From: a virus
Lineage: Duplodnaviria; Caudoviricetes
Length of the DNA: 25,747 bases
IMG/VR virus record: IMGVR_UViG_3300017913_000448
Coordinates: 1 to 25,747 of that record
Strand: one strand, 5' to 3'
Shown here piece after piece: positions 13,328-23,500 of the stretch. The notes under the pieces are model-generated. The model saw only the letters and a list, made by a program, of their open reading frames with translations, had not been told where the DNA came from and did not search any database. Both the position numbers and the translations under genes were made by a program. Position 1 is the first letter of the stretch. The number at the start of each line of letters is the position of its first letter.

Positions 13328-13993
13328 TTAACCATATGTCGAGCCAGTTTCGACCGCTACGAAATAGCGCAAGTCGACCTTGGTAGATGTAAACAAACCA
13401 TAGCGAGGTGTTAGTTTCACGTTATATGCACCAGGTAGCATCTTCAGATTTTCAGTTTTGAATACCATCTTGAATGGTGTATCTGAAGTGTGGTCAACTT
13501 CAACATCATAACTATTTGATGTATCGTTTTTGATGTCGGATGCTTTAACGATAGTTGGACCAGAACCAGTGCTTTCGACTACGATGTCTGGCGCACCAAG
13601 AACTGCGGCACCACGGAGAACCTCTGCCAATGTTTGTGCAGAGATTTCAAACTCAACATCTGCATCTGTTGGTAGGTCTTTGTCTGGTGGTGAAATTACC
13701 ATGCTCTCATCAGCATAGAAATATTTGATTTTTGATTTACCGTTACCAACTACAACTGAATTTGTACCGAAGTCAAATTCTGCATTCTCTTGGAATAGTG
13801 ATACTGCACCCAAGAATTGGTTCAAATCATAGATGGCGAAATCGCTATCGAAATTTTCAGGAACAGAACATTCTGCGAGAATGTTTTTCTGACCACTGAT
13901 TGTACGAAGGCGATTGCCCGTCTTCACCGCAATGCCAGTGTTGATTGTTGAAAAGTTCTTCAACACTGTCAAGGTTTCATTACTAATTTTCAT
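13328..13993 (-). CDS. 45: Sliding clamp (gp45)
   Basis: MKISNETLTVLKNFSTIN, FAIYDLNQFL, ENLKMLPGAY. Confidence 0.95.
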   Translation of the reverse strand: MKISNETLTVLKNFSTINTGIAVKTGNRLRTISGQKNILAECSVPENFDSDFAIYDLNQFLGAVSLFQENAEFDFGTNSVVVGNGKSKIKYFYADESMVISPPDKDLPTDADVEFEISAQTLAEVLRGAAVLGAPDIVVESTGSGPTIVKASDIKNDTSNSYDVEVDHTSDTPFKMVFKTENLKMLPGAYNVKLTPRYGLFTSTKVDLRYFVAVETGSTYG

Positions 13994-14421
13994 ACTTTAT
14001 CTCCAGTAAATTTAGTTGCTCTTTCAAGTTGAGTTTCAATCCACTTTGCACATTCTTTAGCAGTCATTGCTTCATCTTTTACAGGTGGAAGTCGGTCGTC
14101 TTGACCAATCTCTCTAATCACAGATGCAGTCAGCATCATAGCAGAGGACATAATCAAGGCAACGTGCGGCAAACCCGAACCGCCTTCAGCATCGTCATAT
14201 TCACGACCACGCTCAAAGTCTTCAATGTGTCTTTTCAGGCTATCAATCATTTGTTGCCAGGGCAGACCCTTTTCCCAATTTCGATTATCATATTTTTTCG
14301 CACCATATTCAAGTGCGGCGGCACCTGCCGCCAAAGCCTCAAGGGGCAACTGGCGAAAATAGGGAACACCAATGCATTCCCTCATCGCTCCAGTTTCAGA
14401 TTTATTCCATTCTTGCATCAT
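13990..14421 (-). CDS. dATP/dGTP diphosphohydrolase domain protein (DUF5664-like)
   Basis: ETGAMRE, YGAKKYDNRNWEKG, SLKRH, GLPHVA; start revised to ATG 14421 after AAGGAG. Confidence 0.8.
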   Translation of the reverse strand: MMQEWNKSETGAMRECIGVPYFRQLPLEALAAGAAALEYGAKKYDNRNWEKGLPWQQMIDSLKRHIEDFERGREYDDAEGGSGLPHVALIMSSAMMLTASVIREIGQDDRLPPVKDEAMTAKECAKWIETQLERATKFTGDKV

Positions 14422-14428
14422 ATCTCCT

Positions 14429-15616
14429 TTAGAATGGTGCATATTCACCATCTTCAGTTTTAGGTGTTTCGGCTGTCTCACCTTCAGCGGTCATCGCCCC
14501 GCCATCCACTTTAGTGTAGAGGTCGAGGAAAGACTGCTTGGTATCAGCATCGAAACGGTTCACACAAAGTTCGATGGCTTTCATTTTGTCACCGAAGATT
14601 GAGTAGGCTTTCGCAATGTGAACCAGACGGCGAGTTGCGATAATCTCATCAACACCACCTTCATAGAACGTCTTACGAATGATATCAGCCCAGTCAATCA
14701 ACTTGCCGATGAATTCATCATCATTCAGTGACAGGCTATCGAACACCTTCTTCAGGATTTTCTTTTCAACAGCATTGCTGGCATACTCTTGCTCAACAGT
14801 AATTGGGAAACGCTCAAGGAACGCTTCATCAAGGATTTGAGCGGCGATGAAACGACCGTCATCAGAACCCTTACCTTTAGTGTTAGCAGTGGCAACAATG
14901 TTGAACCCTGGAGCAGGATGAATAACTTCACCCGTCTTCTTATTGATGTAAGGCTTACCTTCTGCAATCGCCTGAAGCGCAAGCAACTTGTTAGAGCCAC
15001 GGTCAATCTCATCAAGGACAAGAACCGCACCCTTACGCATTGCATTCAGAACAGGACCTTCACGATAGACAACATTGCCATCGACAAGAGTGTTACCACC
15101 GATGAGGTCATCTTCATCAGTCTCGATTGAGATAGAGATTTTAATCATCTCACGGTTAGAAGCGGCACAGGCTTGTTCGACCATGAAAGTCTTACCGTTA
15201 CCAGAGAGACCAGTCACAAGAACTGGGTAGAACATCTTAGAAACAAGAATGTTCTTCAGGTCATTGAAGAAGCCGAAAGGCACATAAAGTGGGTCTTTCT
15301 CTGGGACAAAGTTCTTTGTCACAGTCTCGGTAATGGCTTGTGTCATAGGAACGACCTTTGCAACTGGTTGTAAGTTCATAGTGGTATCAACTACGGGAGC
15401 AGTTTGCTCACCAGCAATTCGATACATGCCTCGACCAACACGGGTCTCTTTATTTGTATAGATGAAGCGAGGACGGGCGGCACCCATCTCTTCAGCAAGG
15501 TCTACAATCTGTTGCTTGGTCACAACTGGACCGAACTTTTCAACAGCGGCTTCAACAAAGGCAGCCTGGGTAGAAGTTAGATTTTTCATAATATATTCTC
15601 CTTTCAGAGGGTTCAA
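14429..15616 (-). CDS. CobS/MoxR-family AAA+ ATPase
   Basis: GLSGNGKT, EDDLIGG, LDEIDRG, ATANTKGKGS, AFLERF; true start may be MKNLTST a few codons downstream. Confidence 0.9.
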   Translation of the reverse strand: MNPLKGEYIMKNLTSTQAAFVEAAVEKFGPVVTKQQIVDLAEEMGAARPRFIYTNKETRVGRGMYRIAGEQTAPVVDTTMNLQPVAKVVPMTQAITETVTKNFVPEKDPLYVPFGFFNDLKNILVSKMFYPVLVTGLSGNGKTFMVEQACAASNREMIKISISIETDEDDLIGGNTLVDGNVVYREGPVLNAMRKGAVLVLDEIDRGSNKLLALQAIAEGKPYINKKTGEVIHPAPGFNIVATANTKGKGSDDGRFIAAQILDEAFLERFPITVEQEYASNAVEKKILKKVFDSLSLNDDEFIGKLIDWADIIRKTFYEGGVDEIIATRRLVHIAKAYSIFGDKMKAIELCVNRFDADTKQSFLDLYTKVDGGAMTAEGETAETPKTEDGEYAPF

Positions 15617-15697: not shown

Positions 15698-17860
15698 TTA
15701 AGCCGCAACTTTTTCCATTAGTCGGTTCAGAAGAACTCGGTTCGCTGTTTTCGCATTTGAAGCCTTCATAAATGCGCTACGAATTTTTGCTTTTGAAGCG
15801 TCGGCATCAACTTTCAGACCTTCATCAGTTCCAGTCAACATATCATCTCCACCAGGGAGTAAGAAGTAACTGTCATAACCAGCATTGTTCAGTTCTTTGA
15901 ACTTAGTTTTACGAAACTCACGGACATCAGCATTCCAGACACCGAACCGAGCGAATGCGCTACGAATTTCACGAGGGCGATTATCAACGATAAAGAAGCC
16001 AATCGTATTCACACCACAACGGTCTTTGATTGCTTTAATAAGGGCTGTAGTCAAAGTGTCAGTAACTTTGTAAGTCTTCTTGGTCACAGTGTCCTGCATA
16101 AAGCAGTCGGTGCGATATGAATTGCGATAGTAACTTACATGTCCCTCTGAATAATATTCACAAGGCGCTTTCTGAACACCACACTGATGGCTCTCACCAT
16201 CTGACAGAACTACAAAGTTCACAATCTGAGCCTTTGTCTTCTGACGGAACTTTTTGATAATCGCAGGTGCCATCAGCAATGCATCATCAAGAGGAGTACC
16301 GCCCAACTGCATCTGTTGTGGAATGTTCATACGATAGTAACGACCATTCTGAAGAGACTGTCGAACCAGCATCATGTTTTCAAGTTGCTGATTGAAATCT
16401 GCAAGGCTCATGTTTGTATCGAACAAACAAGCAAGACCTGGGTGACGGTCACCAACACAAAGTTCATCATTCGCAAACTGCTTTTCTTTAATCTGAAATT
16501 CTGTACTCGGAATGTGGTCGCTGAACATGTATGCCTCGAAAGGAATTTTAACTTTTCGACAGAAGACAACGAGGTTCAACAACTGGTCGATTGTAGCCGC
16601 CATGTTTGGTGCCATTGAACCAGACCAATCGATGTACATCACAAAGCCGTGGTTCTTACCACCTTGAACTGTCGCAACTTTTTTGAACAGGTCATCGTTG
16701 AACTTGTAACCGAAAACTTTTTTCATATCAAGTTCACCAGTCTTTGAAATCTGAACACGCTTGAATTCATCAGCCTTCTTACGCATCTCAAATTCTTTGA
16801 CCATGTAGTTGATAATCTTCTGGTTGTTTGCACGCCACTCTTTAGTCTTTTCAGCAACTTCAACTTTGTGAGAAGAAAGCAGATTTTCGTTACTCGCAAA
16901 CCATTCAATCACTCGCTTGTAACCGATAACACGGTCAGAGTAGTCATGGTCACCGAAGGTAACATATTCAACTTCACGACCATCTTGCTTAGTTAGTTGA
17001 CCTTCGTTGGCTCGCTGAGTTTCATCAGTATCACCACCCATCAATTCTTCGGCATCAACAGGCATCTCATCGATTTCTTCATCATCGAATTCATCATCCC
17101 ATTCATCACCGTAACCAGCGTCTTGGCTCTCTTCATCACCAGTGGCATCAGTAGGAGCAGGAGCAGAGTTTTGATTTTCTTCTTCTTCACCGTCATCATC
17201 ATTCTGACCATCGGTGTCAAACTCTTCACCTTCTTCATCATCACCAGCCTGACCAGACTGCTTTTGCTCTTCAGCCTCTTGCTCTAATTGCTCTTCGGCT
17301 TTTTCTTTTTCAGCCGCAAACAATTCTTCAGTCAGAGCCATGACCTCTTCGAAAGTATCAGTAGCACCAATCTTTTCAATCCATTCAGCCTCTTCTTCAT
17401 TGAACTGAAGATTTACAAGAGTACCGAGTTTGAAGTGAAGGTTAATTCTGTCGATGAAAGGCAATGCTTGAATGTCTTGACCACGCAAACCGAAGAAGTC
17501 CATATCAAGCAATTCTTTGTAGCCGTTGCGATATGCACCAGCAAGACCAGGGTACTTGAGTTTGATTTTCTTTTCGATGCGGGCATCTTCAACAATGTTC
17601 AAGAATGTTTTGAACTTGGGACCGTTAGCACAAACAGCGTCATGCCAGCCTTCTTCAGGCGTCCACAATGCGTGACCAACTTCGTGGCTAGTCATCAAAT
17701 CGTAAATATTGACGCTCAAGTCTTCTTTGAGAATAGGCAACGTCAACACACGGTTCTTAACATCGAAAGAAGCAGTTTGCGTCTTTTTATGCTGAACTGT
17801 GATGTTTTCTGTCGCCATCAACTTGGCTAACTGAGACTTTGTATTCGCTAAATTCATCAT
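15698..17860 (-). CDS. Metallopeptidase-like (HExxH) + acidic linker + VWA protein (CobT-like partner of the AAA ATPase)
   Basis: HEVGH and NIVEDARIE; D/E-rich linker; MIDAS DWSGSM, GGTPL, LSDGES. Confidence 0.85.
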   Translation of the reverse strand: MMNLANTKSQLAKLMATENITVQHKKTQTASFDVKNRVLTLPILKEDLSVNIYDLMTSHEVGHALWTPEEGWHDAVCANGPKFKTFLNIVEDARIEKKIKLKYPGLAGAYRNGYKELLDMDFFGLRGQDIQALPFIDRINLHFKLGTLVNLQFNEEEAEWIEKIGATDTFEEVMALTEELFAAEKEKAEEQLEQEAEEQKQSGQAGDDEEGEEFDTDGQNDDDGEEEENQNSAPAPTDATGDEESQDAGYGDEWDDEFDDEEIDEMPVDAEELMGGDTDETQRANEGQLTKQDGREVEYVTFGDHDYSDRVIGYKRVIEWFASNENLLSSHKVEVAEKTKEWRANNQKIINYMVKEFEMRKKADEFKRVQISKTGELDMKKVFGYKFNDDLFKKVATVQGGKNHGFVMYIDWSGSMAPNMAATIDQLLNLVVFCRKVKIPFEAYMFSDHIPSTEFQIKEKQFANDELCVGDRHPGLACLFDTNMSLADFNQQLENMMLVRQSLQNGRYYRMNIPQQMQLGGTPLDDALLMAPAIIKKFRQKTKAQIVNFVVLSDGESHQCGVQKAPCEYYSEGHVSYYRNSYRTDCFMQDTVTKKTYKVTDTLTTALIKAIKDRCGVNTIGFFIVDNRPREIRSAFARFGVWNADVREFRKTKFKELNNAGYDSYFLLPGGDDMLTGTDEGLKVDADASKAKIRSAFMKASNAKTANRVLLNRLMEKVAA

Positions 17861-17894
17861 AATATATGTAGTCCTCTCATCACCTTACATATCC

Positions 17895-17922
17895 ATAATA
17901 GCAGGATGACGATATATGTCAA
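17895..17922 (-). promoter_or_regulatory. Sigma70-type promoter TTGACA-16-TATTAT
   Basis: Minus strand TTGACATATATCGTCATCCTGCTATTAT preceded by three AAAATAA units. Confidence 0.75.
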
Positions 17923-17978
17923 GGATTATTTTGGTTATTTTCGCATTATTTTTCAGTGGTTTACGAAAAACCACCAAA

Positions 17979-18662
17979 TTATTTTATTGCGATAGCACCG
18001 ACAAAGAGATGATTTTGCCAGAATGTCTGAACACTTTCAAATCCTGCAACTTCTAACATTGTGTTCAACTCTGACCAAGTGTTTGGTTTCAACAGATTTC
18101 TCAATGTCTGTTCTTTGTCCATAATATCTTTTGCTTCGAAATTTTCACGTTTGAAATCGTAGTACATGAATGTCAGCATGTCCTGAACTTTTGGACTACA
18201 TGAATATGTCTTCTCTGCAAAGATGAAAGCACCACCTGGGTTCAATGCGTCATAGACATTATTCAGAACATCTTGTCTATCTTTGCGTGGCATGAACTGT
18301 AGTGTAAAGATAGAGGTGATAAGAGATGCGTTTTCCATCCATGCATCACGCACATCTTTCTGTACTAGTTCAAGATTGTCTTTGACATAATCTGCCATAC
18401 GCTTACGCATATCATTGACAAATCCATCTGCATACTCATAGCCATAGTAATTACAGTGAGGTGCAAATTCTCTGTTTTGGTCAATCATCGCCGCAAGCGT
18501 TTTACCTGTCGAACAACCTAAGTCATAAACATTCGTATCATCTTCAACGAAATACCGAGACATTTTCACAATGTCATCATGTAGTGTAGAGTAACCTCTA
18601 ATTGATTGGTCGATATGATTATCGAAACCCTCATCACGGTGTGCAAATGTAAAATCAGCCAT
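17979..18662 (-). CDS. cmoA: Carboxy-S-adenosyl-L-methionine synthase-like protein
   Basis: VYDLGCSTG, ENASL, FTLQF, LNPGGA..AEK, DFKR, AGFE..FWQ all track E. coli CmoA as I recall it. Confidence 0.85.
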   Translation of the reverse strand: MADFTFAHRDEGFDNHIDQSIRGYSTLHDDIVKMSRYFVEDDTNVYDLGCSTGKTLAAMIDQNREFAPHCNYYGYEYADGFVNDMRKRMADYVKDNLELVQKDVRDAWMENASLITSIFTLQFMPRKDRQDVLNNVYDALNPGGAFIFAEKTYSCSPKVQDMLTFMYYDFKRENFEAKDIMDKEQTLRNLLKPNTWSELNTMLEVAGFESVQTFWQNHLFVGAIAIK

Positions 18663-19797
18663 TGTTAAAACCTTTCAATACGTTTTCGTATATTGAACCT
18701 GCTACTGCTTTGTACATCAAAGGAGCAACGGCTCGCCCTAGTCGTTCAACCTGTTGGTCAAACTCACCTGTCAATTTATAATCTTCTGGAAAGCCCATCA
18801 AACGGATGCATTCTTTCACTGTCAGTTTTCTATTTTCAGAAGGATGAAAAACTCCACTCATTCCTCTCTTCTGACCTTGTTGTGTAAGGGTCGGGCTTGG
18901 CAGATGCGGTGCTGGTCTAATCATATTAAAACAAGATGCTTTCGGGTTCCAAGAACGGAACTGTGGGTCACTCGGTTTTGTATGTTTCTTAGGGTTAAAG
19001 GGAAGTGGCTCTAAGAACTTCTTCTGAAAAGAATTTTGTACAAAATCAAGGAGCATCTCGACCTCTTTCGGGTCGTTTTCAATATCAGCAATGGCATCGC
19101 CAAGCCCTATATGAGCCTCCACTGTTCTCTTTGGAAAGAGTGAGTGAAGGTTCAAAAATGATAGACCAACAGCATCACATACGTCATCACGAACACAGAT
19201 AAAAATCGTTCTCTCTCGTGCTTGAGGTACTCCGTAATCTGCGGCATTCAATACTTCGTATGTGACGCTGTAGCCTATCTTTTCAAACTCATTGACGAAT
19301 GCATTCAACTTTCCTCGTGCTTCACCAAACGTAATTCCTTTTACGTTCTCTGCTACGATTACTTTCGGTTGAACTTCTTCAGCAATGCGAATGAATTCAT
19401 AAAACAAGTCTTCGATTGCGACTTGCATTTTTCCGTCCGAATATGACTTCTCTTTGCCCCATCCCTTTTCTCGCTTTCCTGCAACTGAGAAAGCACTGCA
19501 AGGAGGTGAGCCGTCAAGTATGTCGAGTTCGCCCTTGGCAACTCCCGCCATATCAAGGAAATCTTGTCCTGTGTACTGTTTGATATCATCGACTAATACC
19601 TTTGTATCAGGGAAGTTAGCAGTATAAGTTTCAACTGCCGCCTCAACAAACTCATTGATTAGAAGAATATTACCACCAGCAAGACGATAGCCTGTAGAAC
19701 TACCACCGCCGCCAGCAAAGCAACTAATCGCCGTAAACTTTTTTGCTTCCGATGCTCTTCTAACATCATCGACATAATATTTTTCATATCTCATCAT
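18655..19797 (-). CDS. C5-cytosine DNA methyltransferase homolog, predicted carboxymethyltransferase
   Basis: Motif I FAGGGG, IV GSPPCSAFS, VI ENVKG, VIII QARER, IX RLMGFP, X LGRAV (N to R). Confidence 0.9.
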   Translation of the reverse strand: MMRYEKYYVDDVRRASEAKKFTAISCFAGGGGSSTGYRLAGGNILLINEFVEAAVETYTANFPDTKVLVDDIKQYTGQDFLDMAGVAKGELDILDGSPPCSAFSVAGKREKGWGKEKSYSDGKMQVAIEDLFYEFIRIAEEVQPKVIVAENVKGITFGEARGKLNAFVNEFEKIGYSVTYEVLNAADYGVPQARERTIFICVRDDVCDAVGLSFLNLHSLFPKRTVEAHIGLGDAIADIENDPKEVEMLLDFVQNSFQKKFLEPLPFNPKKHTKPSDPQFRSWNPKASCFNMIRPAPHLPSPTLTQQGQKRGMSGVFHPSENRKLTVKECIRLMGFPEDYKLTGEFDQQVERLGRAVAPLMYKAVAGSIYENVLKGFNNG

Positions 19798-19799
19798 AT

Positions 19800-19845
19800 C
19801 ACTTTTCTGCGGTTATTTTGTCCATACTAACACACTTTTCTGCGG
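19800..19845. repeat. 13-bp direct repeat CACTTTTCTGCGG x2
   Basis: Copies at 19800-19812 and 19833-19845. Confidence 0.85.
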
Positions 19846-19852
19846 ATGTCAA
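19824..19852 (-). promoter_or_regulatory. Sigma70-type promoter TTGACA-17-TAGTAT upstream of the MTase-cmoA pair
   Basis: Minus strand TTGACATCCGCAGAAAAGTGTGTTAGTAT; the -35 overlaps the upstream TGA stop. Confidence 0.7.
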
Positions 19853-20655
19853 GCAAAAAGTTGATTATCTATATCAATCCAGTCACGAACCAAATCCATA
19901 GTTCGAATTCTGTTTTTGTAATTCAATTCTTTATCTTCTAATAGCGTTTCAAAATGTTCTGGAATACCTGCGACAAGTTGAAGATTTGCGTGTCTACGTC
20001 TCTTAGGCATTTGCTTAAATTCTGGGTAGTCATTTACAATAGGTGCTTTCTGAAAAGGTTTATTAAAGAAATCCCAGTCGTGTTCCATCATATAATTTGC
20101 AACAGAACAACGAACATAAGGTGCAACTAGATTTGCTTCAATCTCTTCTGCAAGTTGCTCTTGCTGTCGAATACCTGCGGGATTCTCTGCACCAAAGTAT
20201 TGAGTACGAAACTCATCGAATAATTCTTTTGTATGTTTGTAATGCATATTCGCTTTCTTCGATACGCCATACCAACCATCTGCGGCAACGCCTGACAGAA
20301 CGTGCTTCTCTTTGATTTTTGGGTAGACATAGAGAAATGGAAATGTGCATTCAACATGTGTCTTTTTCTTGCAATCGTAATATCTCATTAGGCGCAAGAA
20401 ATCATCTTTCAAATTGTTGACAGGAACATCAATCTCGTGATGGTCCCAACCGTAAATCTCTGCGGCTGTTCTAGCCGTTAGATTGTCATCATTGTCAACA
20501 CCGTTGACTTTCATCGTGTATGTGTGAACTTTCTTACCTAATCTCATTGCTGAGAAAGCACAGGTCATGCTATCGATACCGCCAGACATAAGCACAGCAA
20601 CATCGTCAGATGGTGCTTCGTTGCGAATGATTTCTGTAATAATATTTGCAATCAT
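19849..20655 (-). CDS. Asparagine-synthetase-like (PP-loop) ATP-dependent amide ligase lacking a glutaminase domain
   Basis: LMSGGIDS PP-loop, VLSGVAADGWYG (compare AsnB LSGEGADE.FGG), APY. Confidence 0.8.
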   Translation of the reverse strand: MIANIITEIIRNEAPSDDVAVLMSGGIDSMTCAFSAMRLGKKVHTYTMKVNGVDNDDNLTARTAAEIYGWDHHEIDVPVNNLKDDFLRLMRYYDCKKKTHVECTFPFLYVYPKIKEKHVLSGVAADGWYGVSKKANMHYKHTKELFDEFRTQYFGAENPAGIRQQEQLAEEIEANLVAPYVRCSVANYMMEHDWDFFNKPFQKAPIVNDYPEFKQMPKRRRHANLQLVAGIPEHFETLLEDKELNYKNRIRTMDLVRDWIDIDNQLFA

Positions 20656-21083
20656 ATCTTCTCAACTTTCAGACCACACTTTTCTAAAAAGTCAATTCCG
20701 TCTCTACTTCTATATCCATTTTTATAGTAAACTGCACCGATGCCCGATTGATATATCAACTTAGCACAATCAATACAGGGTGCATGAGTTACAAAAAGCG
20801 TAGCATCTTTACCACTCTCTGAACTAGATGCTAGTTTTGCAATCGCATTGGTTTCTGCATGTAACACTTCTGGTTTAGATTTATACAACAATGAACCAAC
20901 TTCATCTTGTCCAACTACATCTTCACAGTTATTATCCCAACCGCTAGGCATACCATTATATCCAATCGATATAATTCTGTTATCTTTCACAATCACACAA
21001 CCGACCTGTAGCCTCTTAGCAGATGATAATTCTGCATAGACTTCTGCTACCTTCATGTGTGCGATTATGAACTTTTGTTTCAT
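20652..21083 (-). CDS. cd: dCMP deaminase
   Basis: GYNG, HAETNAI, PCIDC zinc motifs. Confidence 0.92.
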   Translation of the reverse strand: MKQKFIIAHMKVAEVYAELSSAKRLQVGCVIVKDNRIISIGYNGMPSGWDNNCEDVVGQDEVGSLLYKSKPEVLHAETNAIAKLASSSESGKDATLFVTHAPCIDCAKLIYQSGIGAVYYKNGYRSRDGIDFLEKCGLKVEKI

Positions 21084-21460
21084 ACAGGAACGCCTTCAAC
21101 TCGACCTGAGATATAGTCACGAACTACTACTGCCCAATCATTTGTATATTCGACTTCCCAATCTGGTGCAGGATATTGTGCATTTTTTTTTTTTTTTGCA
21201 TCACGAAACTCTGGGCAAACCCAATACATTTGATAATCTTCTTGTTCGTTCATATATGAGATTTCATATACTCTTTGGTCAAATGAACTGAAGACAATTG
21301 AGAAGTTACCTTCCCAGTCCAGATATCGACCCATTGGATAAACATCACGCCAGCCATGTTCTTCACCACCTGTAATATTGTATCCTACTTGTTCAAACAC
21401 ATCTTTCACTTTTGGGTGTTGTGTGTCTTTGTTACTAACAGCCATTGTTTTCATCCTCAA
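21080..21460 (-). CDS. Hypothetical phage protein containing an A15 run; start possibly at MAVSNK
   Basis: 126 aa ORF coupled to cd by ATGA overlap. Confidence 0.7.
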   Translation of the reverse strand: MRMKTMAVSNKDTQHPKVKDVFEQVGYNITGGEEHGWRDVYPMGRYLDWEGNFSIVFSSFDQRVYEISYMNEQEDYQMYWVCPEFRDAKKKKNAQYPAPDWEVEYTNDWAVVVRDYISGRVEGVPV

Positions 21461-21794
21461 AATTAAATTCTATTTGTTCTTCTCCGGGTTGTTCTAGTGC
21501 ATTAGCAATTCCATCTTGAATTGCTTTCAGAACACCAATCTGAAAGTACCCTTGCGCTTCTTGGTCAGATAAATCAACAGTTTTTGTCGCTGGACTACTC
21601 ATACCTTTGTCAACCCAATCATCCCATTCATCTTTTCTGACAACAACATACTTTTCTTCTAATTCTTCAAGTGCAACTCTTATACCTTGTCGAATAAACA
21701 AAGAAGTCATCTCTTCATTCATTTCAAAGTGTACGATGGCACCACCGTCTTCTTGGTCTACTACATCCAAAACCTGAATTGATTCCTTATCCAT
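21435..21794 (-). CDS. Hypothetical acidic protein
   Basis: 119 aa ORF, TAATG-coupled to the gp46 stop. Confidence 0.75.
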   Translation of the reverse strand: MDKESIQVLDVVDQEDGGAIVHFEMNEEMTSLFIRQGIRVALEELEEKYVVVRKDEWDDWVDKGMSSPATKTVDLSDQEAQGYFQIGVLKAIQDGIANALEQPGEEQIEFNFEDENNGC

Positions 21795-23500
21795 TATGCA
21801 ATCCTCGAATAATTTTTAACCTTTTCAAATTTGACAACACTATGAAACTTGTCATAGAGTTGGTCACCTTTGTGCGAAATGATGAATACATTTGTATCTG
21901 TATTCAGCGTATTGATGATTTTCAAGAATTCATCCGTACCACCCGTATCAAGTGAGCCATCAAACACTTCATCTAAAATCAACAGATTTGTGTTTACTGA
22001 ATTCTTCATCTTTGCGATTGTGCGCCATGTAAACAATAACGCCAAATCAATTCGCATCTTCTCACCTTCTGAAAATGATGCATATGAGAAATCATCACGG
22101 TAGCGTGAACGAATTGTCTCATTGAAAGTTGCATCTAGTTCAAACTGAACAAAGAAGTCCATTGACGCTAGATACTTGTTCACCAATTTGTTTATGATTG
22201 GCAAATACTGGTTAACAATGCGTGTTTTGATACCTGTATCTTTTAGAAGACCAGACGCAATGTCATACAAATACTTGTCTGATGATAACTTTTCTTTTGC
22301 TTTTTCAAGTGTAGAAACAGTACCATGAAGTTTTTCAAGTTTCGCCTTTTCTTCTTCGATTTTATCACTTTCATCAACAATTCTTTCATTCTGTAGTTTA
22401 GTGATGTACTGTTGTAGACCAGTGATAGAAGATTGCTCTACTCGTACTTTGGTTTGATTGTCCGAGATTTCCGATTGGACCTCTGTAATTTCGGCAAGTC
22501 TGATTGAGACTTCATCGGTCTGCGTTGTGATTTCTTCCAACGCTTTAGTGACTTCCACAATCTTGCCGTCAATGCTGGCAATAGTATCAGTCTTAAAGGC
22601 ATCTTCAATGTGCTGATGACAAGTCGGACAATTATCATTTTCAGTATAGAATTTCTTGTCGTTCTCATGTTTTGTGTTCGTTCTTTTCAACCGACCTCTA
22701 AGGTCGTTGAGTTTAGTTTGTTTTTCTCTGACTTTCTCAAAGTCTGATATATCTCCAGACAACTCTTCAATTCTTGCTCTGAGCCTTTCGATTGTTCCTT
22801 CGTGAAGTTCGATACTCTTTTTCGATTTGTCAATCTCATCGTTGTTGAGTTGAATTTTGGATTCATTGCCTGTCTCCAGAGTTTGTATAAAGTCCTTGAG
22901 AATTTCAATCTTCTCTTGGGCTTTAGAAAGTTGAAAGTCACACTGTTGAGTGTCTTCACGCATTCTCTTCTGCTTGTCTTTAAGCAGGTTGTTCATAGTT
23001 GTAAATATCTCAATATCTAGTAGGTTCTCAATCACCTCTTTTCGTGCAGATGAAGCCAACTGCATGAATGGTGTAAATGTAGCAGAACCAAGAATGACAA
23101 CCTGAGTAAACGATTTGAAGTTCAAACCTAGAATAGTATTTTCAAGAACCAGTTGTTGGTCTTTGATAGCCGCTTTCTGGTCGAGATTTTTTCCGTCCAC
23201 TATGATGTCTAAAACATTGGGTTTTATGCCTCTTCGGACAAGATATTGTCTCCTACCAATTGAGAATTCAACTTCAACAACTGCTTCACGTCCGTTGATG
23301 CTATTCACCAACTGACCTTTTTTGATTTTTCTGAATGGCATTCCAAACAGACCAAATGTCAGTGCATCAAGAATAGTGGATTTACCAGCACCATTCTCAC
23401 CGATAATCAGCGTTGATACACTTCTATCTAGTTGTATTTCTGTCCACGCATTACCAGTTGACAGAAAGTTTTTCCACCTAACATACTTAAATGTAATCAT
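21794..23500 (-). CDS. 46: Recombination endonuclease ATPase subunit (gp46, Rad50/SbcC-like)
   Basis: KNFLSTGN, GENGAGKS, zinc hook CPTC, FSEGE, LILDEVFD, ISH. Confidence 0.96.
   Translation of the reverse strand: MITFKYVRWKNFLSTGNAWTEIQLDRSVSTLIIGENGAGKSTILDALTFGLFGMPFRKIKKGQLVNSINGREAVVEVEFSIGRRQYLVRRGIKPNVLDIIVDGKNLDQKAAIKDQQLVLENTILGLNFKSFTQVVILGSATFTPFMQLASSARKEVIENLLDIEIFTTMNNLLKDKQKRMREDTQQCDFQLSKAQEKIEILKDFIQTLETGNESKIQLNNDEIDKSKKSIELHEGTIERLRARIEELSGDISDFEKVREKQTKLNDLRGRLKRTNTKHENDKKFYTENDNCPTCHQHIEDAFKTDTIASIDGKIVEVTKALEEITTQTDEVSIRLAEITEVQSEISDNQTKVRVEQSSITGLQQYITKLQNERIVDESDKIEEEKAKLEKLHGTVSTLEKAKEKLSSDKYLYDIASGLLKDTGIKTRIVNQYLPIINKLVNKYLASMDFFVQFELDATFNETIRSRYRDDFSYASFSEGEKMRIDLALLFTWRTIAKMKNSVNTNLLILDEVFDGSLDTGGTDEFLKIINTLNTDTNVFIISHKGDQLYDKFHSVVKFEKVKNYSRIA

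Follow-up and report, generated by a model that had tools for sequence, protein, structure and literature searches.

An intact CmoY–CmoX–CmoA DNA-modification cassette in a T4-like phage contig, with surviving restriction sites that point to CC as a candidate target

The viral record IMGVR_UViG_3300017913_000448 (Duplodnaviria; Caudoviricetes) is a linear sequence of 25,747 bases with an estimated completeness of 14%; the entire record was analysed and is referred to here as the window. Its minus strand carries three co-oriented open reading frames (ORFs)—cmoY (19849–20655; 268 amino acids; PF00733 Asn_synthase, E = 1.9e-15), cmoX (18655–19797; 380 amino acids, or 379 when started at the second ATG like its relatives; PF00145, E = 2.9e-60) and cmoA (17979–18662; 227 amino acids; TIGR00740 CmoA, E = 1.9e-39). 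The cmoX and cmoA reading frames share 8 bases (18655–18662), and 51 bases separate cmoY from cmoX. These ORFs, family matches and overlap bear out the first-pass annotation, which had described three adjacent, co-oriented genes, the last two overlapping. It had also named a CmoA/CmoX/CmoY precedent from a cyanophage, and this pathway is indeed published for Synechococcus phage S-B43 (Yang et al., Nat Commun 2025;17:281, PMC12783734). In that report, CmoA makes carboxy-S-adenosylmethionine (carboxy-SAM, or Cx-SAM), CmoX accepts only Cx-SAM and carboxymethylates cytosine C5 in GC, and CmoY adenylates the carboxylate and ligates glycine, converting 5-carboxymethylcytosine (5cxmC) to its glycine amide; in DNA from S-B43 virions approximately 75% of GC sites bear the glycine amide, and protection against HhaI was shown.

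The three window genes are clear relatives of this published set, which makes the same chemistry on phage DNA cytosines likely. Judging from homology, we hold with high confidence that the cassette is a real, intact member of the family and carboxymethylates phage DNA. CmoA would make carboxy-SAM, CmoX would use it to carboxymethylate C5 of cytosines in the phage's own DNA after replication, and CmoY would link the resulting carboxylate to an amine, probably glycine; DNA modified in this way would likely be shielded from host restriction enzymes. Gene identity, linkage and active-site residues are established here for the window, and the chemical steps and HhaI protection are established for S-B43.

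The window CmoX has the S-B43 enzyme (SpCmoX; PDB 8YF3) as its top structural match (E = 7e-110), with the next match 86 orders of magnitude weaker (E = 3.5e-24), and 197 of 363 aligned residues are identical (54%). In the alignment, the catalytic SPPC95–98 of SpCmoX corresponds to S97-P98-P99-C100, the arginine that contacts the Cx-SAM carboxylate (R350) corresponds to R355, where it replaces the motif-X Asn, and the cofactor contacts F25, E47, F48 and D69 are all kept (F27, E49, F50 and D71). A C5 enzyme of phage Melnitz, used as a control, is 43–47% identical, with Leu in place of R355; it is adjoined by a TET/JBP oxygenase, and no CmoA or CmoY match was found within the 10 kb examined around it. 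The loop following a conserved TL/TI, which we take to be the DNA-reading loop of C5 methyltransferases, falls into at least three classes among CmoX proteins: TLTASGG (S-B43), TLTAMG (S-CRM01) and TLTQQGQKRGMSG (window, in the region of residues 300–318, approximately). At two other loci (L132 and L148) cmoX is apparently broken into two ORFs, perhaps by a frameshift or an assembly error.

CmoA has Escherichia coli CmoA as its PDB match (4GEK, E = 2e-31; 4IWN, E = 4e-30) and is 54% identical to SpCmoA (122/226 aligned residues), consistent with full-length orthology. The S-adenosylmethionine (SAM) contacts of E. coli CmoA (Tyr39, Asp62, Gly64, Ser66 and Asp117) align to Y24, D47, G49, S51 and D103. 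Two features speak against a carboxy-SAM synthase: the TIGR00740 score of 135.8 bits lies under the 193.3 cut-off, and, by our reading of the alignment, E184 and I118 stand opposite the E. coli residues Arg199 and Asn132, Arg199 being described as forming a salt bridge with the cofactor carboxylate (PMC3663124). The window protein has an arginine four residues past E184, R188, where E. coli has Glu. The CmoA of S-B43, a proven enzyme, has E187, L121 and R191 at the positions of E184, I118 and R188, and the Glu...Arg arrangement recurs among CmoA homologues (Glu in 68/70, Arg in 69/70). On these residues, the window CmoA is of the phage SpCmoA type, not a bacterial CmoA. Compared with the bacterial CmoA/CmoB pathway to tRNA 5-carboxymethoxyuridine (cmo5U; PMC3663124), the CmoA fold and SAM contacts are kept, whereas E184 and I118, the sub-cut-off TIGR00740 score, the lack of a CmoB match in the window and the partnership with a DNA enzyme set the window system apart. 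The first-pass proposal that the phage redirects carboxy-SAM to DNA to make 5cxmC is thus supported by orthology to the S-B43 set and by the residues retained in CmoX and CmoA.

CmoY consists of a single recognized domain (PF00733, residues 18–154) with an SGGIDS PP-loop, and a glutaminase domain is absent. It aligns with SpCmoY over its full length with 129 of 267 residues identical (48%), and its best cultured-phage matches are S-B05, RB11-B and S-B43, at 48.3%; a search of solved structures at E 0.01 gave no relative. The window agrees with S-B43 in 53 of the 55 columns that are at least 90% conserved across 45 CmoY homologues. The S-B43 report assigns an ammonia amide (+57 Da) to ligases that have a glutaminase domain (PMC12783734). 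The missing glutaminase domain and the shared columns favour glycine over the +57 Da product, and the pathway probably ends in a glycine amide, with m/z 343.1 and a mass shift of +115 Da relative to deoxycytidine. Of the first-pass claim that the ligase adenylates the new carboxylate to form an amide, the S-B43 orthology thus supports the reaction, and the mass shift expected for an ammonia amide gives way to that of glycine.

Linkage was surveyed in the best 80 of 427 viral CmoA loci, several near-identical genomes included. CmoX is present in 78 of the 80, with the Cx-SAM Arg in 78/78, and CmoY in 50, always in the order Y–X–A (50/50). The grouping of the three genes is not chance, and the co-occurrence survey suggested in the first-pass annotation thus found them to be co-conserved. 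Where the sequence upstream of cmoX exceeds 1 kb (50 loci), cmoY is absent in 12. A cmoX–cmoA pair with no adjoining cmoY homologue was seen at L088, L090–L092, L126, L127, L139–L143 and L146 and in S-CRM01 (L002), and in the genome G004 no cmoY homologue was found in the 140 kb examined. At loci with no neighbouring cmoY, the end point may be unamidated 5cxmC or the product of another ligase.

The target of the window CmoX appears to differ from that of SpCmoX. S-B43, analysed over 164,783 of its 213,993 bases, is depleted in GpC, with an odds ratio of 0.65 and a codon-junction G|C ratio of 0.36; two cyanophages in which the 50 kb examined held no cassette gave 0.76 and 0.86. The window and six relatives have GpC odds ratios of 0.96–1.05, that is, no depletion, and codon-junction G|C ratios of 0.83 (window) and 1.01–1.47 (relatives). 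Across de-duplicated loci, median GpC is 0.99 in the loop class of the window (22 loci) versus 0.88 in the two cyanophage-type classes (19 loci; p = 2e-5, a value that ignores kinship), with a background of 1.03. Sites that GC marking should protect are almost missing from the window (AGCT 0, GGCC 0, GCWGC 1), and the clade is purged of them too. We consider it probable, on composition and site counts, that the window CmoX does not mark GC; the GC target of S-B43 is a property of the type enzyme and lies outside the definition of the family.

A candidate for the alternative target came from restriction sites that survive in otherwise purged genomes. For avoided sites with no internal CC, we determined the fraction whose terminal C belongs to a CC dinucleotide, and treated GC likewise. 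In S-B43 this survivor test recovered GC (10/10, with 2.3 expected) and not CC (16/35, with 14.9 expected). The clade of the window has been purged of GANTC, CGCG, GCWGC and other sites, save copies that overlap CC. All 13 GANTC survivors in the window overlap CC (2.4 expected), and over all avoided sites the overlap is 109/110 in G001 (26 expected), 97/100 in G002, 43/43 in G003, 15/15 in G006, 41/43 in G022 and 5/5 in G021. The GC rule fails in G001 (8/39 survivors versus 14.5 expected). Counted as distinct contexts, the CC rule is obeyed by CGCG (37/37), GCWGC (20/20), CTGCAG (9/9), CGWCG (8/8), GCATGC (6/6), CTTAAG (4/4), GANTC (214/261) and GTTAAC (14/19). Most exceptions trace to genomes in which the word concerned is not avoided: GANTC is not among the words avoided by G021 (13/55 flanked), the source of most of the 47 exceptions among the 261 pooled contexts, and GTTAAC is not avoided in the window (3/8). 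CC may be followed by any base and preceded by A, G or T. Applied to non-avoided sites, the CC rule gives 16–51%. In G004, a genome 80% complete whose loop is related and whose sole methyltransferase match is CmoX, CC accounts for 47/94 survivors versus 27.9 expected. The CC rule was not seen in G018 (2/10), G020 (11/29) or G015 (1/6), the last of which belongs to another loop class. No second C5 family, N4/N6 family or other DNA methyltransferase was matched in the contigs of the partial relatives. Because the surviving sites in the clade are almost only those overlapping CC, CC is the most likely mark of CmoX among the targets considered, and that the window CmoX itself writes it is, on this footprint, an evenly balanced proposition.

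Several refinements and controls were tried. A narrower A/T-C-C target was rejected, as G/C-C-C is the only form in 20/20 GCWGC, 6/6 GCATGC and 18/37 CGCG contexts, and assigning which C of CC is marked failed, as the survivors include sites with C at the end as well as sites with C at the start. Codon-junction ratios in the window (C|C 0.65, G|G 0.57) are equalled by phages that have no CmoX, for example G018 (0.45 and 0.54). Codon constraint, weighed by reasoning alone, explains the TGGCC survivors (Trp-Pro) in G018 and S-WAM1 and may contribute in alanine runs, but no codon pair forces GANTC with a chosen flank. GATC and AGCT are entirely missing from the window, G001–G003, G006 and G022 (expected counts of 108 and 60 for the window and of 297 and 167 for G001), and site avoidance this extreme points to hosts rich in restriction systems.

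A number of observations weigh against CC marking by CmoX. GGCC (0 versus 28 expected) and CCGG (2 versus 24) are avoided in the window despite containing CC, and no GATC survives there, even before C. When all window survivors are pooled, the weakly avoided GCGC and CAATTG included, the CC fraction falls to 27/37 (9.9 expected), and CpC depletion was dropped as evidence (loop class 0.78 versus background 0.85, p = 0.11). The related genomes of the clade share ancestry, so their survivor counts are not independent. In G012 and G013, which have a similar loop, the CC rule is weak (28/67 versus 22.4 expected and 39/127 versus 30.9). The footprint also extends beyond CmoX: CC overlap reaches 73/73 in G016, a complete genome with no PF00145 protein, and 63/71 in G017, which has no C5 family; a mild excess occurs in S-RIM8 (32/61 versus 20 expected) and across 16 loci of the slot described below that have neither CmoX nor the SPPY amino-methyltransferase found there in G016 and G017 (23/46 versus 11.4).

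The slot in question begins at a deoxycytidylate (dCMP) deaminase gene (20652–21083, minus strand; PF00383, E = 5e-23), which lies directly upstream of cmoY and overlaps it by 4 bases. The same gene has the same place in close relatives and also precedes the N4-type methyltransferase of G016, G017 and G019; it stands at the upstream boundary of a swappable DNA-modification slot, and its link to the pathway is one of position. In G016 the place of the cassette, between the dCMP deaminase gene and the PHROG-459 gene, is taken by an SPPY amino-methyltransferase of 533 amino acids (DPSSGWGG ... SPPY; G016:C1:100307–101908, equivalent to L300:5307–6908, minus strand), which is also found in G017, G019, G023 and G026. 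This enzyme has no full-length relative among cultured phages and no homologue in the window or its partial relatives, and the near-perfect CC footprint of G016 and G017 makes it a candidate CC-specific N4-cytosine methyltransferase. That footprint fits convergence on CC by a second type of enzyme, although another enzyme or shared ancestry can leave the same mark. Close relatives of G016 and G019 with a partial CC footprint carry yet other genes in the slot (L218:2759–5884, 263 amino acids; L229:3083–5417, 311 amino acids), the L229 protein being presumably glycosyltransferase-like, and these differing genes indicate that the slot is swappable. Upstream of the slot in G016, G017 and G019 (L300:7612–9469, minus strand) are a weak homologue of pyridoxal phosphate (PLP) enzymes (PHROG 7093) and a 370-amino-acid protein with an Asp/Asn beta-hydroxylase domain, which are possibly another modification module.

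These observations allow a different account of the footprint, in which the cassette keeps both the pathway and the GC target of S-B43 and the CC signal stems from another, unseen enzyme or from an N4-type CC methyltransferase that an ancestor carried in the slot. Room for such an enzyme exists, as the record is a 14% fragment and the contigs of the clade together hold only approximately 105 kb of non-redundant coding sequence, and the footprint in phages with the SPPY enzyme or with the L218 and L229 genes fits it as well. We nevertheless regard this account as unlikely, given the absence of GC depletion, the purging of AGCT, GGCC and GCWGC that GC marking should have protected, the failure of the GC rule in the clade, a loop that differs from that of S-B43 and the lack of an SPPY-enzyme homologue in the window and its partial relatives.

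The remaining alternatives concern the chemistry. Carboxymethylation could proceed as in S-B43 with CmoY attaching a different amine, another alpha-amino acid or ammonia; a ligase just 48% identical to SpCmoY leaves some latitude for this, but the near-complete agreement at conserved columns, the missing glutaminase domain and the S-B43-type ligases as best cultured matches render it doubtful, if less so than a GC target. A more radical possibility is that CmoX is an ordinary SAM-dependent methyltransferase producing 5-methylcytosine, with CmoA and the ligase serving, for example, tRNA modification. CmoX does score above the PF00145 and TIGR00675 cut-offs, and CmoA lacks the E. coli Arg199 at the aligned position; against this stand Arg355 in place of the motif-X Asn, the exclusive use of Cx-SAM by wild-type SpCmoX, the presence of the Arg in every CmoA-linked homologue and its absence in Melnitz, and the lack of any CmoB family among the 33 window proteins scanned, and we consider such a function very improbable.

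The cmoY–cmoX junction contains a predicted sigma-70 promoter for cmoX–cmoA (19800–19852, minus strand), with TTGACA-17-TAGTAT at 19852–19824 (10/12 in a consensus scan, with TG). Such promoter-like sites number 39 in the window versus 28.3 expected in shuffles, which makes the match weak evidence when taken alone. A 13-base direct repeat (D18) has one copy in the promoter spacer (19833–19845) and one just before the cmoX start codon (19800–19812), and these are its only copies in the window, allowing up to 2 mismatches. The −35 box and both repeat copies are retained, with at most one change each, in 5/5 aligned relatives; promoter and repeat are retained in 4/14 further loci, one of them more diverged. 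Paired D18 copies occupy this place in 3/5 genomes searched and in neither of the 2 more distant ones, and occur almost nowhere else in the contigs. The arrangement suggests that cmoX–cmoA may be transcribable early from its own promoter and may be regulated, with D18 as a possible operator. In the window both D18 copies start with CC, and the modification could conceivably feed back on this region, but this is speculation.

The wider neighbourhood is a T4-like replication module (gp55, gp47, gp46, gp45, gp44, gp62, regA, gp43, uvsX and gp41), in which the cassette lies between gp46 (21794–23500) and gp45 (13328–13993), as the first-pass annotation had placed it, with other genes intervening on both sides. 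Upstream of cmoY these are the dCMP deaminase gene and two hypothetical ORFs, and downstream of cmoA are genes for a 720-amino-acid PHROG-459 protein, a CobS-like AAA protein and a PF18909 dATP/dGTP diphosphohydrolase. The last of these (13990–14481) is 66–92% identical in many cassette-bearing relatives. We take its family to be a helper of purine-modification pathways, of which the partial contigs of the clade showed none. A hypothetical ORF at 21080–21460 contains a run of approximately 15 A on its coding strand with the frame kept (126 amino acids versus 124 in L011). The window DNA polymerase is at most 52% identical to that of any cultured phage. The first-pass annotation had also seen no restriction endonuclease and no cmoB; no match to either was found among the 33 window proteins scanned, which says little about the whole genome because the record is only 14% complete. 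Contigs of the sequencing runs X1, a possible source of the window, and X3 cover 27 of 30 bins of 17400–21100 and X2 covers 10, and X3 bridges the cmoY–cmoX junction (19646–20094); no single contig among the X1–X3 runs spans the whole cassette.

The window cassette resembles that of S-B43 in having all three genes (48–54% identical), the SPPC motif and Cx-SAM Arg, a ligase with no glutaminase domain and a T4-like aquatic phage as carrier. It differs in gene order (Y–X–A versus A–Y–X), in location (between gp46 and gp45 versus beside a primase-helicase gene), in the predicted internal promoter and direct repeat before cmoX, in a longer DNA-reading loop, and in showing a CC footprint and no GC depletion. 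In the S-B43 report, 5,615 CmoX candidates indicate that the pathway is widespread, and the sequence specificity of other CmoX enzymes is named as open (PMC12783734). The chemistry is already published and the cassette alone is ordinary; the different target is the new part. Our literature searches, which returned mostly listings and left subscription journals largely uncovered, found no paper on a second CmoX specificity. A viral C5 enzyme reading CC has a precedent in the chlorovirus methyltransferases M.CviPII and M.CviQIX, which read only CC and methylate its first C, and have GC-reading relatives (PMC9636781). The parallel drawn with CmoX concerns their described specificity; the group they transfer is a methyl group from SAM (PMC9636781).

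Taken as a whole, our proposal is that the clade holds a CC-specific CmoX, the first non-GC member, that one short loop with at least three classes switches specificity, that the target can be read from surviving sites, and that unrelated T4-like phages reached CC through an N4-type enzyme in the same slot; we put this composite on a par with its negation. The survivor test, having recovered GC in S-B43, offers a means of predicting targets for uncultured phages. If CC is marked, the carboxylate-writing enzyme would provide a tool with no CpG overlap, a property sought in epigenome mapping (PMC9636781). For the CmoX family, it would mean a second natural specificity, in an enzyme 54% identical to one of solved structure, and exchange of the loop could then test how CmoX specificity is set.

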